This document shows, one piece after another, positions 3,947 to 13,121 of a stretch of DNA of 15,456 bases (positions within the stretch are counted from its first letter, which is position 1; the number at the start of each line of letters is the position of its first letter). Where the stretch lies: the IMG/VR virus record IMGVR_UViG_2698536485_000022, one strand, 5' to 3'. Under the pieces are notes generated by a model. That model was not told where the DNA came from, did no database searches, and worked only from the letters and a program-made list of their open reading frames with translations. The DNA is from a virus. Lineage: Duplodnaviria > Heunggongvirae > Uroviricota > Caudoviricetes. A program made the position numbers and the translations under genes.

Positions 3947-4771
3947 TCAGGCGGTGAAAGTACCAATAAAGGTTTCTACTTTGCTGTCTTTGAATTTCTC
4001 AACAAGCAGATCACGAAATTCGTTAGCCATATCTTCCTGCACCGCTTCCAGCTGAATAATGCGCAGAACCAGTACAGGACGATCGCCAGTGATAATGCTG
4101 AGGCGTAATTTAAACGGACGTTCTTTCAGACCTTCAAACGGAACGCATTTAAATTCAAATGCCACTGGCATAATGTCTTTGGTCTTCGCTTCGACAGATT
4201 CCATCAGGGAGCGTTTGCCGCTGAAGTCATTATCTTCAAAATCAGCGGTCTGGTTTGCTTCAATCGTGATTTTACGGATTGCCGCAGCCGCTTTTGTTGC
4301 CTGAATGGCGCCACCATTAGCATCAAAGCCCACAAGGTAGTCGGCCCAGTCTTCAATCCATTCTGCCAGTGATTTCTGGGAGTTACGCTCGCCGTTAACA
4401 GACAACAGGGCAGAGAACGGTGCTGTCTTTTTCAGTTTGAGAGTGGCGGTGTTATCTGCGTGACCTGGTTCATCAATAGTACCCAGGTTAAGCACACTGA
4501 CGGCACGCATATTATCAGCATCGATAAAGCAGCGGGTGCCTTCATCTGCAAGATCTTTAGAATAACGGGTAAAGTCATCGATGCTGGCAGTGGAAAGCGC
4601 ACCACGGAAACGGAAGCGATTTAAATTAAATTTTTCCAGATCATGAATGCGGAAATTCTCAGGCAATGCCACAGCATCGGCACCAATCTTACTGATAATT
4701 TCATTAACACCCTGAGCAGAAATAAGGGCATGGATTTGATTAATTGCGGTTGCGTCTAAGTTCTGAGACAT
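3947..4771 (-). CDS. yfdQ: YfdQ-like prophage protein (DUF2303-type)
   Basis: 274-aa ORF from ATG 4771 with GAGGA Shine-Dalgarno. Length and synteny (120-aa gene upstream, HD-domain gene downstream) match the yfdP-yfdQ-yfdR order of K-12 CPS-53 as I recall it. Not verified by alignment. Confidence 0.55.
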
Positions 4772-5865: not shown

Positions 5866-6540
5866 TTAGGCCTTTATTATGTATCTTCTTGGTTTTCCTG
5901 AGAAAATCACTGTACCAATTATAGAGCAATTACCGTTGATCTTAATGTAAGGTTCAGGCCAGTTTGGGTTTAATGCTTTGAGGTAACGCTGTGTTCCATC
6001 TTCTATCAACCGCTTGAAGGTGGTTTCGCCTGTATCGTGCATCAATGCAATAACGTCGTCACCGTGGCAGGCAGGGACTTCAGGATCAACAAAAATCATG
6101 TCTCCCGGGCGGTACTCATCAATCATTGAATCACCAATCACCCGCAAGATATAAGTCATTTCGCCACAGGGTACAGGGCAGGGGTAAGTTTCTGCTGTGC
6201 TCAAATCAACCTCAGAATAGCCAACTTCTTTCCATGCTCCGGCCTGTACCCATGATATGACAGGGACTAACGTTATTTGTTTGTTAGTGATTGAAACATC
6301 AGGTTTTTTTGTGATGTTCGTGGTCTGGTGTTCTTGATCAAGCCATCCGACAGGCAGGTCGAAACATTTTTCGATGTGCCGCGCCATGCTGTCACCGATA
6401 TTTTTAGTAGCACCATCTCCCATAAACCTGCTGGTCTGGGTTGGCTCGCGATCAATCATGGTGGCAAAGGAAGAATTCCCGCCAACACCATCTCTCAGTT
6501 TTCTGGCGTTAGACCGCCGGATGTCATGGACTGTTTTCAT
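5866..6540 (-). CDS. cI: CI-type prophage repressor (N-terminal HTH, C-terminal S24 LexA-like autopeptidase)
   Basis: 224 aa from ATG 6540. C-terminal domain has the Ala-Gly cleavage site (VQAGAW), catalytic Ser in VIGDSM and Lys in TFKRL. Divergent from the cro-like gene. Confidence 0.85.
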   Translation of the reverse strand: MKTVHDIRRSNARKLRDGVGGNSSFATMIDREPTQTSRFMGDGATKNIGDSMARHIEKCFDLPVGWLDQEHQTTNITKKPDVSITNKQITLVPVISWVQAGAWKEVGYSEVDLSTAETYPCPVPCGEMTYILRVIGDSMIDEYRPGDMIFVDPEVPACHGDDVIALMHDTGETTFKRLIEDGTQRYLKALNPNWPEPYIKINGNCSIIGTVIFSGKPRRYIIKA

Positions 6541-6862: not shown

Positions 6863-7426
6863 ATGAGGCTAACCGTGGGTAAGCATCACTGGAAAGTAGA
6901 AAAACAGCCTGAGTGGTACGTGAAAGCTGTCAGAAAAACTATCGCGGCGTTGCCGGGGGGTTACGCTGAAGCTGCTGAGTGGCTGGATGTAACAGAGAAC
7001 GCTTTATTCAACCGCCTTCGTGCAGATGGCGATCAGATTTTCCCGCTGGGATGGGCAATGGTTTTACAGCGCGCGGCTGGCACTCACTACATTGCGGATG
7101 CTGTCGCACAGTCTGCTGGTGGGGTGTTTGTATCGCTTCCTGAAATTGAGGAAGTAGAGAACGCCGATATAAACCAGCGCCTGCTGGAAGTCATCGAACA
7201 GATCGGGAATTACTCAAAGCAGATTCGTTCGGCAATCGAAGATGGGGTCGTGGAGCCACACGAGCAGACAGCAATTAATGATGAGTTGTATCTGTCAATT
7301 TCGAAGCTCCAGGAGCATGCAGCACTGGTCTACAAAATCTTCTGCGCTCCAGAAAAGAGTGACGCCCGCGAGTGTGCAGCTCCGGGCGTCGTGGCGTTTT
7401 GTGTCTGTGGAGAAACTAACGCATGA
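6863..7426 (+). CDS. early regulatory protein, CII-like / YdaT-like family
   Basis: 187-aa ORF immediately after cro. Stop overlaps the next start (ATGA). Family call is by position and general resemblance only. Confidence 0.45.
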
Positions 7427-7814
7427 ACAGTTTAACAACACACTACCGTCGCTCGCAACTGATTGCGCTTCCTGTACCGGGTGGAAAAGCGAAGGTGGAG
7501 TATTGCTATGCAGTGAATGTACCAGGTGACAGGGAAATTGTAACCCACAGCTTTGCAGAGTGGGCTGTGGGTGATTTCAACCGGCAGAAGGAGACAGTCC
7601 TTTGCGACAAGTTAACCGCTGGTTCAAAGATCACTACGGAGTGCCCGTCAGAGTCATTCGTTGGGAGCCGGAAACACAACGGGTTATCTACCTCCGTGAA
7701 GGCTATGAACATGAATGCTTCAGTCCGCTCGAACAGTTTCGTCGTAAATTCAGGGAAATAGAGGTCGGTCATGAGCCTGTTAATGACATCCCAGCCCATT
7801 GTGATAAATCGTGA
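7423..7814 (+). CDS. uncharacterised early gene with a frame switch (frame 1 open 7423-7761; frame 0 open 7575-7814)
   Basis: ATG 7423 has GGAGAAA upstream and overlaps the previous stop. Frame 0 has AAGGAGA followed by TTG at 7602 and encodes [54 protein letters not shown]. The frame-1 tail after about 7600 is low-complexity (Ser/Asn-rich). Confidence 0.35.
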
Positions 7815-8763
7815 TCTTGCATGCCGTATTGGTCTGAATGAGGCAATTGTGTTGCAGCAGCTTCATTACTGGCTGAATGAAACGAATTCAGGCACTGAGC
7901 ATGGCGGAATTCGCTGGGTTTATAACACGACAGAACAGTGGCTGGAGCAGTTTCCGTTCTGGTCAGAGTCCACTCTGAAACGCACATTTGCAAGCCTGAA
8001 ATCACTTGGGGTTTTGCGTCGCGAGCAACTCAATAAATCGAAGCGTGACATGACCAACTTCTACACGATCAACTATGAAAGTGAGCTTTTAGAAGAGGTC
8101 AAAGTGAACGAATCCATCAGGTCAAAATGCACTTCTCCATCGGGTCAAAGTGACCTGATGGATGGGCGCAAAATGACACGATCCATTGGTTCAAAACGAC
8201 ACGCTGTCATCGGGTCAAAATGGCCCAATGATCTTACAGAGAATACAACAGAGATTACTACAGAGAATAAAACCTCTTCTCGTCCGGACGCTTCGCAACC
8301 GGACACGCAAACGGCTGAACAGGAGTTTTTAACTCGCCATCCTGATGCGGTTGTATTCAGCCCTAAAAAGCGCCAGTGGGGAACGCAGGATGATTTGACC
8401 TGCGCACAGTGGCTCTGGAAAAAAATCATCGCCCTGTACGAGCAGGCCGCCGAATGTGACGGCGAGGTGGTTCGTCCCAAAGAACCGAACTGGACAGCAT
8501 GGGCAAACGAAATTCGCCTGATGTGTGTGCAGGATGGTCGTACTCACAAACAAATCTGCGAGATGTACAGCCGCGTCAGCCGCGATCCGTTCTGGTGCCG
8601 TAACGTGCTCAGCCCGTCGAAGTTGCGGGAAAAATGGGATGAGCTTTCCCTGCGCTTATCGCCGTCCGTCAGCACGCACACAGAAAAACGTGAAGACCCG
8701 TACTTCAAAGCCAGTTACGACAACGTGGACTACAGCCAGATCCCGGCAGGATTCAGGGGGTGA
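7771..8763 (+). CDS. replication initiation protein, O-like (replisome-organizer / DnaD-like N-terminal domain)
   Basis: 330 aa from ATG 7771 with GAGG Shine-Dalgarno. N-terminus [36 protein letters not shown] ... TLKRTFASLKSLGVLRRE is typical of phage replisome organizers. Position after cro/cII. Confidence 0.75.
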   Translation: MSLLMTSQPIVINRDLACRIGLNEAIVLQQLHYWLNETNSGTEHGGIRWVYNTTEQWLEQFPFWSESTLKRTFASLKSLGVLRREQLNKSKRDMTNFYTINYESELLEEVKVNESIRSKCTSPSGQSDLMDGRKMTRSIGSKRHAVIGSKWPNDLTENTTEITTENKTSSRPDASQPDTQTAEQEFLTRHPDAVVFSPKKRQWGTQDDLTCAQWLWKKIIALYEQAAECDGEVVRPKEPNWTAWANEIRLMCVQDGRTHKQICEMYSRVSRDPFWCRNVLSPSKLREKWDELSLRLSPSVSTHTEKREDPYFKASYDNVDYSQIPAGFRG

Positions 8764-8765
8764 TC

Positions 8766-8858
8766 ATGAGTCTGTTAAATGACGTTCAGAAATTCATTGA
8801 AGCCCATCCGGGCTGTACTTCCGGAGACATTGCGGATGCTTTTTACGTGGGGGCTTAA
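8766..8858 (+). CDS. 30-aa ORF between O-like and dam, possible remnant
   Basis: ATG 8766 to TAA 8856-8858 (MSLLNDVQKFIEAHPGCTSGDIADAFYVGA). Stop overlaps the dam start (TAATG). Occupies the position where a helicase-loader gene would be expected. Confidence 0.2.
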   Translation: MSLLNDVQKFIEAHPGCTSGDIADAFYVGA

Positions 8859-9511
8859 TGAGTAATAAATATTGCCAGGCGCTGGTGGAACTGCGGAATA
8901 AACCAGCCCATGAACTGAAGGAAGTGGGAGATCAGTGGCGCACGCCGGATAACATTTTCTGGGGAATTAACACCCTGTTTGGTCCGTTTGTTCTGGATCT
9001 GTTCACTGACGGTGATAACGCCAAATGTGCCGCGTATTACACGGCGGAAGACAACGCGCTGGCGCATGACTGGTCAGAACGCCTTGCGGAGCTTAAAGGT
9101 GCTGCCTTTGGTAATCCTCCATACAGCCGCGCCAGTCAGCATGAGGGGCAATACATCACCGGCATGCGTTACATCATGAAACATGCCAGTGCCATGCGTG
9201 ATAAGGGCGGGCGCTATGTTTTCCTGATCAAAGCTGCCACCAGCGAAGTGTGGTGGCCGGAAGATGCAGATCATATTGCTTTTATTCGCGGGCGTATTGG
9301 TTTTGAACTGCCTGTCTGGTTTATCCCGAAAGACGAGAAGCAGGTACCGACAGGAGCTTTTTTCGCTGGTGCTATTGCTGTTTTTGACAAGACCTGGAAG
9401 GGACCGGCAATCAGCTACATTGGGCGCGATGAACTTGAGGCATGTGGTGAGGCGTTTCTGGCGCAGGTTCGCCAGCAGGCGGAAAAACTGGTCAGGGAGA
9501 TGGCGGCATGA
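8858..9511 (+). CDS. phage Dam-family DNA N6-adenine methyltransferase
   Basis: 217 aa with the catalytic NPPY motif (AAFGNPPYSRA). Translationally coupled on both sides. Confidence 0.8.
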   Translation: MSNKYCQALVELRNKPAHELKEVGDQWRTPDNIFWGINTLFGPFVLDLFTDGDNAKCAAYYTAEDNALAHDWSERLAELKGAAFGNPPYSRASQHEGQYITGMRYIMKHASAMRDKGGRYVFLIKAATSEVWWPEDADHIAFIRGRIGFELPVWFIPKDEKQVPTGAFFAGAIAVFDKTWKGPAISYIGRDELEACGEAFLAQVRQQAEKLVREMAA

Positions 9512-9834
9512 CGACATTAACTCAATGCCAGCAGCAGGTGCTGGATATGCTGATTTCTTATCAGAAAGAGCGTGGCTTTCCGCCAACCAATCAGGAGGTG
9601 GCAACCATGCTGGGATACCGTTCAGTGAATGCAGCGGTAGAGCATCTTCGCGCACTGGAGAAAAAAGGCGTCATCACGATAAAGCGTGGCGTGGCCCGGG
9701 GGATAACGCTTCATACCGCGGTGAAGGACGACGACAGCGAGGCGGTCGGGATTATCCACTCACTGCTTGCCGGTGAGGAAAACGCAAGGCTGCGTGCAAC
9801 CCACTGGTTACATGAGAGGGACCTGAAAGTATGA
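9508..9834 (+). CDS. LexA N-terminal DNA-binding-domain paralog lacking the S24 peptidase domain
   Basis: 108 aa. MTTLTQCQQQVLDMLISYQKERGFPPTNQEVATMLGYRSVNAAVEHLRALEKKGVITIKRGVARGITL aligns by eye with the E. coli LexA N-terminus (..LT.RQQEV.D.I.......G.PPT..E.A..LG.RS.NAA.EHL.AL..KGVI.I..G..RGI.L). No cleavage site or Ser/Lys dyad follows. Confidence 0.75.
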   Translation: MTTLTQCQQQVLDMLISYQKERGFPPTNQEVATMLGYRSVNAAVEHLRALEKKGVITIKRGVARGITLHTAVKDDDSEAVGIIHSLLAGEENARLRATHWLHERDLKV

Positions 9835-10226
9835 AGCTGATCCTGCCTTTTCCGCCCAGCGTGAACACGTACTGGCGACACCCCAACAAAGGGGCGTTTG
9901 CTGGTAAGAGCCTGATAAGCGCGGCGGGGCGCAAATTCCAGAGCGCGGCGTGTGCAGCAATAGTTGAGCAGTTACGTCGTCTGCCAAAACCAACGTCGGC
10001 ACCTGCATCAGTGGAGATCGTGTTGTTTCCTCCGGATAACCGGATCCGCGATCTGGACAACTATAACAAGGCGCTGTTTGACGCCCTGACCCACGCGGGT
10101 GTGTGGGAAGACGACAGTCAGGTGAAAAGAATGCTGGTGGAGTGGGGACCGGTTATCCCGGAAGGGAAGGTCGAGATCACTATCAGTAAGTACGAAAAAG
10201 CGAGTTGCAAATTAGCAACTCGGTAA
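9831..10226 (+). CDS. rusA: RusA Holliday-junction resolvase
   Basis: 131 aa. Motifs LPFPPSVNTYWR and DLDNYNKALFDALTHAGVWEDDSQV match RusA. Confidence 0.85.
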   Translation: MKLILPFPPSVNTYWRHPNKGAFAGKSLISAAGRKFQSAACAAIVEQLRRLPKPTSAPASVEIVLFPPDNRIRDLDNYNKALFDALTHAGVWEDDSQVKRMLVEWGPVIPEGKVEITISKYEKASCKLATR

Positions 10227-10271
10227 CGGAATTGAGCAACACCCTAAATTTGGGTATTACCTCGTTAAAGA

Positions 10272-10291
10272 TACTGTATTTATGAACAGTG
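10272..10291. promoter_or_regulatory. SOS (LexA) box TACTGTATTTATGAACAGTG
   Basis: CTGT-N8-ACAG core at 10274-10289 with matching flanks (consensus TACTGTATATATATACAGTA). About 90 bp upstream of the KilA-N gene start, adjacent to a TTGATA hexamer at 10297-10302. Confidence 0.65.
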
Positions 10292-10377
10292 TATCCTTGA
10301 TAACTATTAAAAATCGCAGTAAGTTCATCTTGCATCAACGAAAAGGGAGTGCAGTCCCGAAATTTGTGGAGAAACCA

Positions 10378-11193
10378 ATGAATCAGTTGCTTGTAATTGA
10401 TGGCGTTTCTGTGCGCCAGTACTTTGAATCTAACTACTGTCTTAACGACCTTCAGAAAGCTGCTCTTCTTGCCGCTGGTGAGAATCGCTCCTCCCGTTCG
10501 CTGGAAGTTCACGAGTTTATGCGTCGTCCTGAAACGAAGGCTCTTGTGGAATTACTGGAAGAAGAAACTACGGGAGATTCCCGTAGTATTCCTGTCATCA
10601 CCATTCAGGGGCGCAATGGTGGGACGTATGTCTGTAAAGAGCTGGTCTATGCATATGCAATGTGGATCAGCCCGGCATTCAGCTTAAAAGTGATACGTAC
10701 TTTTGATGCGCTTCATAATTCATCACCAGAAGAAACCATATCCGACAAAATTAAATCCGGGGTCATTCTGCTTGAATCAGCAGCAAAGACTCTAAATCTG
10801 TCAAACTCCTCGAAACTTGGTGCATACCAGAAATTATCAAAGGTAGCAGGTCTTCCTGAACTTATGCCGATCTATGCCATTGATGCACCTGCTGATGCGC
10901 CAGATGGTTCAAGCCGCCCGACACTGTCACTGAGTGCACTGCTGAAACAGTATGGTATACGCCTGACGGCTAATCAGGCATATCACCAGATGGTGAAACT
11001 GGGGATCGTCGAGCAGCGCGAACGATACAGCCGTACCGCGATTAACAACATCAAAAAATTCTGGTCGCTGACAGCGAAAGGTTGCATGTTCGGCAAGAAC
11101 ATCACCAGTCCTGCAAATCCGCGCGAGACGCAGCCGCATTTCTTCGAATCCCGATTCCCTGAGCTGTTAAAGCTGCTCGATACCGTTCACTGA
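10378..11193 (+). CDS. KilA-N domain protein, antirepressor-like
   Basis: Track ORF 10282-11193 trimmed to ATG 10378 (GGAG 8 nt upstream); 271 aa. N-terminal KilA-N pattern: LLVIDGVSVRQYFESNYCLNDLQKAAL ... GTYVCKELVYAYAMWISPAF. Confidence 0.7.
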   Translation: MNQLLVIDGVSVRQYFESNYCLNDLQKAALLAAGENRSSRSLEVHEFMRRPETKALVELLEEETTGDSRSIPVITIQGRNGGTYVCKELVYAYAMWISPAFSLKVIRTFDALHNSSPEETISDKIKSGVILLESAAKTLNLSNSSKLGAYQKLSKVAGLPELMPIYAIDAPADAPDGSSRPTLSLSALLKQYGIRLTANQAYHQMVKLGIVEQRERYSRTAINNIKKFWSLTAKGCMFGKNITSPANPRETQPHFFESRFPELLKLLDTVH

Positions 11194-12723: not shown

Positions 12724-12740
12724 TTTTGTGGAGAAAGTTG

Positions 12741-13121
12741 ATGCGTGATATTCAGATGGTTCTTGAACGCTGGGGGGCATGGGCGGCAAGTGGTAACACC
12801 GGGGTGGACTATTCTCCGATCGCTGCCGGATTCAAAGGACTTTTACCATCTGCCACTAAACCACGTCCGGCCTGCTGCGATGATGACGGACTTATCATTG
12901 AAAACTGTCTTGCTCGTCTGAAGCAGAAAAAACCTGAGGAGTATTCGCTTCTCATTGCTCATTATTTGTTGCGAATATCAAAAAGACAGATAGCCAGGAC
13001 GAGAAAGAAAAGCGAAAAAGCAATACGAATTGAGATGCAGATAGCCGAAGGGTTTATTGACGGATGTTTGTCTGTGCTGGGGGTAAGACTGGAGATGGAC
13101 GACTGGCTGCTAAAAAAGTAA
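12741..13121 (+). CDS. late-gene antiterminator Q (QuuD/QuuQ type)
   Basis: 126 aa from ATG 12741 with GGAG Shine-Dalgarno (MRDIQMVLERWGAWAA ... AAGFKGLLP ... CCDDDGLIIENCLARLKQ). Followed by a terminator. Confidence 0.75.
   Translation: MRDIQMVLERWGAWAASGNTGVDYSPIAAGFKGLLPSATKPRPACCDDDGLIIENCLARLKQKKPEEYSLLIAHYLLRISKRQIARTRKKSEKAIRIEMQIAEGFIDGCLSVLGVRLEMDDWLLKK

Follow-up and report, generated by a model that had tools for sequence, protein, structure and literature searches.

A LexA-derived winged helix without the S24 protease encoded by a lambdoid prophage within its nin region

We describe a phage-encoded protein that is a LexA-derived winged helix without the S24 protease of LexA. The gene, here denoted LexL, lies in a 15,456-nucleotide (nt) stretch of DNA from a virus of the Caudoviricetes (IMG/VR record IMGVR_UViG_2698536485_000022), which we refer to, in its full length, as the window, and encodes a product of 108 amino acids (aa) with the sequence MTTLTQCQQQVLDMLISYQKERGFPPTNQEVATMLGYRSVNAAVEHLRALEKKGVITIKRGVARGITLHTAVKDDDSEAVGIIHSLLAGEENARLRATHWLHERDLKV. 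The best explanation of the comparisons presented here is that LexL is a small phage transcription factor, in which a captured LexA DNA-binding domain is connected through a flexible linker to a private hairpin that replaces the S24 autopeptidase and dimerisation domain. A preliminary description of the window, made from the sequence alone, had presented the product as a non-cleavable mimic of LexA. Our analysis indicates that LexL is real, of ordinary appearance and of a kind of protein that is already known, and that it is reasonable to regard it as a candidate for an uncleavable LexA mimic.

Domain architecture and family of LexL

Residues 1-65 of LexL match all 65 positions of the Pfam model LexA_DNA_bind (PF01726) with E=3e-19 and 69 bits, the cutoff of this model being 23.7 bits. 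Residues 2-69 align without gaps to residues 2-69 of Escherichia coli LexA (phmmer search against the Protein Data Bank, entry 1lea; E=7e-16), and 34 of the 68 positions in this alignment are identical (50%). An AlphaFold2 model of LexL, based on a multiple sequence alignment of 21 family sequences, has a mean predicted local distance difference test score (pLDDT) of 82.8; a single-sequence AlphaFold2 run reached a pLDDT of 51 and was set aside in favour of this model. The modelled winged helix comprises helices at residues 6-22, 28-35 and 40-52 and strands at residues 56-58 and 66-68, and Foldseek places it on the LexA-DNA complex (3jso_B) with a root-mean-square deviation of 1.0 A over 67 residues and 51% identity. 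The domain match, the sequence identity and the structural superposition thus bear out the earlier statement that the product aligns with the N-terminal winged helix of LexA.

The remainder of the protein is different. LexL scores 71.1 bits against the NCBIfam equivalog model for lexA (TIGR00498), below the cutoff of 110.95, and covers only positions 1-91 of the 203 in the model. No match to Peptidase_S24 (PF00717) was detected in LexL by Pfam, whereas the neighbouring cI-type repressor was matched in the same search with E=1.5e-26. The tripeptide A88-G89-E90 aligns with A84-G85-E86 of LexA in both the HMMER and the TIGR00498 alignments and was considered as a residual cleavage site, but was rejected because it is unconserved in the family, where homologues have TGG, AEE, ERE or DDQ in these positions, and because it is located at the end of a predicted helix. 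With neither a protease nor a conserved Ala-Gly site, LexL is unable to cleave itself, and the immunity to RecA-stimulated cleavage that had been suggested for it is supported. Judging by the S24, scissile-site and equivalog-score tests alike, LexL is not a LexA, although it descends from the DNA-binding domain of LexA and would operate in a similar manner.

The winged helix is followed by a low-confidence linker (residues 69-73) and by two helices (residues 74-87 and 93-103) that are modelled with a pLDDT of about 87. In family alignments, the pattern EAVxxIxxLLxxxxxARxRAxxWLxxxG is kept in this tail down to about 40% identity, with conserved hydrophobic positions (V80, I83, L86, L87, A97, W100 and L101) in both of the predicted helices. 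The tail has no match in Pfam and no counterpart in LexA by Foldseek. Two amphipathic helices on a flexible linker could well form a dimerisation module, as we infer from the model. The claim that the product stops before the cleavage site and the S24 domain of LexA is therefore correct insofar as both of these are missing, but it overlooked the 35-aa hairpin that LexL has after the winged helix. It is because of this conserved hairpin that LexL is longer than the fragment of residues 1-84 that is released when LexA is cleaved.

The comparison with E. coli LexA (TIGR00498; 1lea, 3jso) can be extended along these lines. The two proteins share the ungapped winged helix, including residues of the recognition helix and of the wing (R64-G65-I66), but LexL has V in place of E44 and is devoid not only of the S24 domain and the conserved Ala-Gly site but also of the Ser/Lys dyad and the LexA dimerisation domain. 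Moreover, it carries a private hairpin and falls below the NCBIfam cutoff, and its gene belongs to the nin operon of a phage instead of following SOS boxes of its own. The LexA 1-84 fragment resembles LexL in that the winged helix is separate from the protease domain; however, the fragment arises by cleavage, whereas LexL is genetically encoded and has an added helical module. Furthermore, LexL ends with -LKV, whereas the cleavage fragment of LexA exposes a C-terminal -VAA, and Neher and colleagues are said to have reported in 2003 that ClpX recognises this exposed -VAA terminus.

The LexL family is broadly represented among phages and prophages. The profile phrog_362 ('transcriptional repressor') aligns with residues 1-108 of LexL over its positions 1-106 of 106 with E=1.4e-58. 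Genes 95-98% identical to LexL are found in SfV, SfII, SfIV, cdtI, mEp460, Ayreon, 1720a-02 and many Stx2 phages (including Stx2c-phage), under labels that range from 'unknown' to 'LexA-like protein'; among these, orf42 of SfV is 96% identical and is embedded in the same order of Dam, orf42 and RusA. In a megablast search of complete E. coli genomes, the gene was detected in 2233 of the 5426 genomes (about 41%), in 2855 places. Homologues with 40-50% identity come from mEp390 and from prophages of Klebsiella, Kosakonia, Buttiauxella, Enterobacter and Citrobacter, and those in other genera keep the position, the length and the tail pattern of LexL. Proteins of 65-150 aa that contain only the LexA domain are widespread in unrelated phages as well, including tectiviruses and mycobacteriophages (Foldseek search of viral models).

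Accordingly, the gene is not new: the SfV genome record already brought it into the databases, where all of its annotations rest on homology. Compared to PHROG 362, SfV orf42 and RefSeq entries of the WP_000210151 type, LexL is the same family at full length, with allelic changes only. These entries carry homology labels ('transcriptional repressor'), and a search for an experimental basis of such labels found none. The idea of phage-encoded, uncleavable LexA-domain proteins has already been published, too. A 'bully phage' preprint on the LexL-carrying phage 1720a-02 ascribes the interference to Cro and not to the LexL protein. The gene is best viewed as annotated, common and uncharacterised rather than surprising.

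Recognition helix, SOS boxes and a tentative mode of action

PMC13416735, citing Knegtel 1995, lists Ser39, Asn41, Ala42, Glu44 and Glu45 as residues of E. coli LexA that take part in DNA binding. Across residues 38-46, LexL has RSVNAAVEH where E. coli LexA has RSPNAAEEH, so that four of the five listed residues (S39, N41, A42 and E45) are kept and E44 is replaced by V; A43 and H46 are also the same in both proteins. In the 21-sequence family alignment, S39, N41, K53 and the wing residues R64-G65-I66 are invariant. The alignment of the DNA-contact residues to those of LexA, which the preliminary description had put forward as a check, thus showed the residue of LexA at all of the listed positions except residue 44. 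Given the retention of four of the five residues, binding of LexL to CTGT-type half-sites is plausible.

Taking these features as a starting point, we propose a tentative reading, the leading one among those considered here although it falls short of being likely, in which LexL dimerises via its tail, binds CTGT-type palindromes, which are likely to be SOS boxes, and re-represses them after the cleavage of LexA. The ATG of LexL overlaps the stop codon of the upstream Dam gene (ATGA, 9508-9511), and its own stop codon overlaps the start of the downstream RusA gene (ATGA, 9831-9834), which suggests that LexL is translationally coupled to both Dam and RusA. From this coupling within a nin (delayed-early) operon, it would follow that LexL is made once the prophage repressor is lifted, or after infection. 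The hairpin would then dimerise the protein, and the recognition helix would read CTGT-type half-sites through S39, N41, A42, E45 and H46. The likeliest targets of this particular allele would be LexA-type operators, namely the box that precedes the KilA-N gene (10272-10291), together with the SOS boxes of the host or of co-resident prophages. Because LexL has no cleavage site and no protease, RecA* could not remove it, and repression would be re-imposed at SOS boxes after the LexA of the host has been destroyed. The dimerisation, the DNA target, the sign as a repressor and the timing are all steps that we infer.

Several lines of evidence are consistent with this proposal. No other site in the window than the box at 10272-10291 is a perfect CTGT-N8-ACAG or a strong LexA-type site, and this box is located 440 bp downstream of LexL with only RusA in between, so that the earlier placement of the gene upstream of an SOS box was accurate. 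Its score is 21.5 with an approximate LexA position-specific scoring matrix (PSSM) built from E. coli boxes; on this scale, known E. coli boxes score 12.9-27.6, and about 0.1 site is expected by chance per 10 kb. In other genera, operons headed by an SOS box hold the homologue: in Klebsiella and Enterobacter, the SOS box is followed by dinI, a GUG-initiated GfoA-like antirepressor, LexL, a 67-aa open reading frame (ORF), DUF968 and Q, and in the Edwardsiella phage EPP-1, by Rha, a LexL of 71 aa that has no tail, and DUF968. In addition, the free N-terminal domain of LexA has been reported to retain some binding to SOS boxes and some repression, such that degradation by ClpXP is needed for SOS activation (PMC10584840), which makes a stable protein consisting of the N-terminal domain only a credible damper of the SOS response.

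The Klebsiella and Enterobacter proteins deserve a separate comment. They are 130 aa long, with an N-terminal extension, and follow a perfect SOS box (L098 6306-7312, L097 6467-7315, L004 1-969, L106-L129); given this location, LexL is probably itself SOS-induced in these prophages. Most of the Klebsiella copies have lost Glu45 (SSSNAVLLH).

Other evidence weighs against the proposed role at SOS boxes. Glu is present at residue 44 in no member of the LexL family, and residue 45 differs among the subfamilies, being E in the present allele, in mEp390 and in L097/L098, L in the common Klebsiella type (SSSNAVLLH), T in the subtype with a different C-terminal domain, G in one Citrobacter member and D in P0123. 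The variability of residues 44 and 45 is easier to reconcile with operators that drift and are specific to the phage than with a target in the host that stays fixed. The tectivirus protein gp6, considered in the next section, is 44% identical to the N-terminal domain of its host LexA, yet has a different palindrome and is an activator. The structural model of LexL is a monomer with an uncertain arrangement of domains (predicted template modelling score, pTM, 0.56), which leaves tail dimerisation as a supposition, and the Edwardsiella homologue has no tail whatsoever. Finally, a literature search found no experimental paper on the enterobacterial LexL family.

The distribution of SOS boxes around LexL points in the same direction. 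Among 80 IMG/VR loci that carry a LexL gene 97-99% identical to the present one, approximately 72 have the KilA-N gene, in the form of a different allele (about 68-70% identical), right after RusA, with a gap of 20-40 bp that holds only a ribosome-binding site and no SOS box; the arrangement with the box that is found in the window is present in only three. An SOS box lies somewhere near LexL in 44 of the 80 loci, and none is found within 6 kb on either side in the other 36. A count over the complete E. coli genomes gave 204 places for the spacer that contains the SOS box and 2855 for LexL, so that about 93% of the copies are without an adjacent box. Hence the SOS-box spacer accompanies at most about 7% of the E. 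coli copies of LexL, and the link is not a property of the family. Elsewhere, mEp390 has LexL followed by RusA and DUF968 without an antirepressor, its only SOS box being 10 kb away beside a dinI/umuD-like moron pair, and the order in Kosakonia and Buttiauxella is LexL, RusA, a KilA-N or Rha-type protein, and DUF968.

As a control, 80 loci anchored on DUF968 were scored for a strong SOS box within 4 kb upstream. Such a box was present in 23 of the 28 loci with LexL (82%) and in 38 of the 52 loci without it (73%). Because the frequencies are similar, co-occurrence with SOS boxes was dropped as functional evidence; it neither supports nor refutes the binding of LexL to SOS boxes. SOS-box modules are common in these nin regions, and LexL is an optional passenger. 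The functional tie between LexL and the downstream antirepressor under SOS-box control, which had been envisaged in the preliminary description, is supported by none of the three comparisons, namely the three loci out of 80, the 204 as opposed to 2855 places and the DUF968 control.

If LexL does occupy SOS boxes, an induced lambdoid prophage could re-silence the SOS response of the host while RecA* is active, with consequences for mutagenesis, filamentation and the release of colicins as well as for the induction of prophages nearby, Stx phages among them. LexL could even act as an SOS 'super-repressor' by which an induced prophage, once pR opens, replaces the cleaved LexA at SOS boxes, to the detriment of the host cell and of rivals, but we consider this rather unlikely. 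In that case, the prophage would shut its own SOS-controlled antirepressor promoter, a negative feedback of the pulse type, and at the same time the SOS response of the host would be silenced and co-resident prophages, colicins and elements with LexA-controlled antirepressors would be blocked. As about 41% of sequenced E. coli carry the gene in prophages, a super-repressor of this kind would amount to a widespread, unrecognised layer of competition between prophages and of modulation of the SOS response of pathogens like E. coli strains that produce Shiga toxin (STEC).

Alternative explanations

A serious possibility, although again not one that we would call likely, is that LexL is a phage-specific regulator with an operator of its own, the winged helix being a portable module whose specificity has moved off the SOS box, so that the SOS response of the host is left untouched. 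LexL would then activate or repress a phage promoter, for example that of the late, nin or moron genes. There is a precedent in gp6 of GIL01, a tectivirus of Bacillus thuringiensis, which is a truncated homologue of LexA, 44% identical to the N-terminal domain of the host LexA, that binds its own palindrome GaCACAnnTGTGaC, overlapping the -35 element of the late promoter P3, and activates transcription (PMC6182141). Like LexL, gp6 is phage-encoded, and it belongs to the early operon of an SOS-inducible temperate phage (PMC6182141), but the kinship between the two proteins is one by description: gp6 is extended by only 14 residues, which complete the wing, whereas LexL adds a hairpin of ~35 aa, GIL01 is a tectivirus whereas LexL is encoded by a lambdoid siphovirus or myovirus, and the hosts and the parent LexA lineages are different. 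The recognition helix of the gp6 type features Lys38; LexL shares with E. coli LexA the succession of R38 and S39. An operator specific to the phage would also be in accord with the range of residue 44-45 pairs across the subfamilies (VE, AE, LL, AL, AT, AG and TD), with the occurrence of the winged helix in nin regions in combination with at least three C-termini, namely the helical hairpin, nothing and an unrelated domain of ~100 aa (L172-L178, P0130), with the abundance of LexA-domain-only proteins in unrelated phages, and with the lack of an SOS box near most of the E. coli copies. However, this allele does not differ from E. coli LexA at S39, N41, A42, A43, E45 and H46, and the search for inverted repeats near LexL, in the window and in the Klebsiella-type loci, revealed only SOS boxes and a terminator-like palindrome and no alternative conserved palindrome. 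No candidate palindrome was detected near Q or the late region either. In the window, CTGT-N8-ACAG is matched perfectly by the SOS box alone, and the frequency of one-mismatch sites does not exceed that expected by chance. Should LexL turn out to have its own operator, it would be the second case, after GIL01 gp6, of a private circuit built on the LexA winged helix, with a new dimerisation tail.

Two other explanations carry considerably less weight. E. coli shares with Kosakonia, Buttiauxella and Enterobacter the gene order of replication genes, (Dam), LexL, RusA, further genes, DUF968 and Q, LexL appears to be translationally coupled to Dam and RusA, and PMC4118853 describes DUF968 as a fusion of Orf (NinB) with HNH, all of which would suit a DNA-binding accessory of the flanking recombination and replication genes (Dam, RusA and DUF968) that targets or protects DNA sites, for example. 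We nevertheless regard such a role as improbable: adjacency is weak evidence because nin regions are mosaics of unrelated accessory genes, the Klebsiella-type LexL is found behind dinI and the antirepressor without RusA or Dam as a neighbour, and LexL folds like a classical repressor domain of the kind that binds operators. Finally, LexL might be a functionless remnant of a captured lexA that is passively carried, considering that two thirds of LexA are gone, that many truncated or fused variants exist in the databases and that one Shigella copy (L087) is frameshifted. This appears highly improbable and is disfavoured by the pattern of conservation: the ORF of 106-108 aa is intact in the 2233 E. 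coli genomes, homologues only 40-50% identical in several genera maintain its length, tail pattern and position, S39 and N41 are invariant and the wing R64-G65-I66 is conserved, and the protein has gained a C-terminal module that is both new and conserved.

Gene neighbourhood and additional observations

The coordinates of LexL, its parts and the surrounding features are given in Table 1. The locus is the nin region of a lambdoid prophage with immunity of the SfV/e14 type, in agreement with the original assignment of the protein to a phage, and a prophage of STEC strain 2013C-3264 matches the window with 99.9% identity. The repressor gene is followed by cro, cII-like and O-like replication genes and then by Dam, LexL and RusA; after RusA come a 150-bp spacer with the SOS box, KilA-N, a 171-aa ORF, DUF968 and Q (12726-13121). 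The longest ORF of KilA-N begins at an ATG at 10282, inside the SOS box, but the true start is at 10378, where it is annotated by RefSeq in the 99.9% identical prophage, with GGAGA upstream and a leader of ~90 nt after the box. A promoter scan of positions 8700-10450 found no consensus sigma-70 promoter.

Table 1. LexL and associated features of the window
Feature	Position	Strand	Remarks
S24 cI-type repressor	5866-6540	-	ymfK-like
Dam N6-adenine methyltransferase of the phage	8858..9511	+	upstream gene
Shine-Dalgarno-like GGGAG	9495..9499	+	8 nt before the LexL ATG; read from sequence
LexL (name used here)	9508..9834	+	gene for the 108-aa LexA-DNA-binding-domain-only protein; ATG start; PHROG 362; RefSeq 'LexA family transcriptional regulator'
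LexL residues 1-69	9508..9714	+	LexA-type winged helix-turn-helix; three helices and beta wing
LexL recognition helix, residues 39-52	9622..9663	+	SVNAAVEHLRALEK versus LexA SPNAAEEHLKALAR; phmmer alignment
LexL residues 74-108	9727..9831	+	family-conserved two-helix hairpin (helices 74-87 and 93-103), unrelated to the S24 domain of LexA
RusA Holliday-junction resolvase	9831..10226	+	downstream gene
SOS (LexA) box TACTGTATTTATGAACAGTG	10272..10291	.	candidate LexL target; context, outside the gene
KilA-N domain protein	10378..11193	+	follows the SOS box; putative antirepressor or regulator

The surroundings of the SOS box contain additional symmetrical elements. A near-perfect palindrome, CGAGTTGCAAATTAGCAACTCG, spans positions 10201-10222 in the 3'-terminal part of rusA, shortly before the box, and is not followed by a run of T on the + strand. 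Two similar AT-centred motifs, CCCTAAATTTGGG and CCCGAAATTTGTGG (10242-10254 and 10357-10370), are located ~30 bp upstream and 65 bp downstream of the box; they could be sites of another regulator or could have arisen by chance. In Gifsy prophages, terminator-like palindromes precede the LexA boxes (PMC3121763), and the LexA-controlled antirepressor modules of the Gifsy type (Lemire et al. 2011, PMC3121763) resemble the present locus in combining an SOS box in the nin region, a terminator-like palindrome and an induction-related gene. As described (PMC3121763), however, these modules include no LexA-domain protein, whereas in Klebsiella and Enterobacter LexL follows dinI and the GfoA-like antirepressor. 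The possibility that LexL corresponds to Gifsy irsA, from the dinI-antirepressor-irsA operon, received no support from tblastn searches of the phage collection with the E. coli and the Klebsiella queries, which retrieved no Gifsy record; by position, irsA is more likely to be DUF968.

Two further SOS boxes recur among the loci that were compared. A strong box, TACTGTTTTT(A/C)(T/C)ATACAGTA, with a PSSM score of 27, is found 2.9-5.5 kb upstream of LexL in ~30 of the loci L006-L085 and in L086. In L086, a Shigella flexneri prophage and the one locus in which the placement relative to the cI-type repressor gene was examined, this box (4103-4122) is inside the coding sequence of the repressor, in the linker between the helix-turn-helix and the C-terminal domain. 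The other box, TACTGTAAAAATAAACAGTG, is at the annotated start of the DNA methyltransferase gene orf48, downstream of Q and its terminator (SfV, L186 34170-34189; ~20 of L006-L085), which suggests a methyltransferase moron under the control of LexA.

Variation of the domain architecture was noticed outside the main family. In one subtype (L172, L174, L177, L178 and P0130), the LexA winged helix, with the motif RSPNAAATH, is joined to an unrelated C-terminal domain of ~100 residues (...NLNSIVKVKL...GYSAMTLWSLMSDLGQLCYCGGDVPFELK...). The gene order of this subtype is LexL, RusA, KilA-N and DUF968, with LexL ~2.3 kb upstream of DUF968 in L172, L174, L177 and L178. Several metagenomic proteins of 140-350 aa (P0128, P0129, P0147, P0150, P0151 and others) contain two LexA DNA-binding domains in tandem and no S24 domain, and may represent 'single-chain dimers'.

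Two observations concern other parts of the window. At the left end, positions 1-1806 hold the gene for a protein with a Panacea domain, which could be an antitoxin, as well as two small ORFs and the gene for a 'competence protein' similar to CoiA (772-1806); the labels of these genes, which have no PHROG match, rest on homology to positions 1-2009 of L001, and the segment looks like a cargo or defence island at the end of the prophage. The cII/CP76-like gene ymfL, which according to RefSeq is frameshifted in the 99.9% identical prophage, is represented in the window by two ORFs, at 6863-7426 and 7423-7761.

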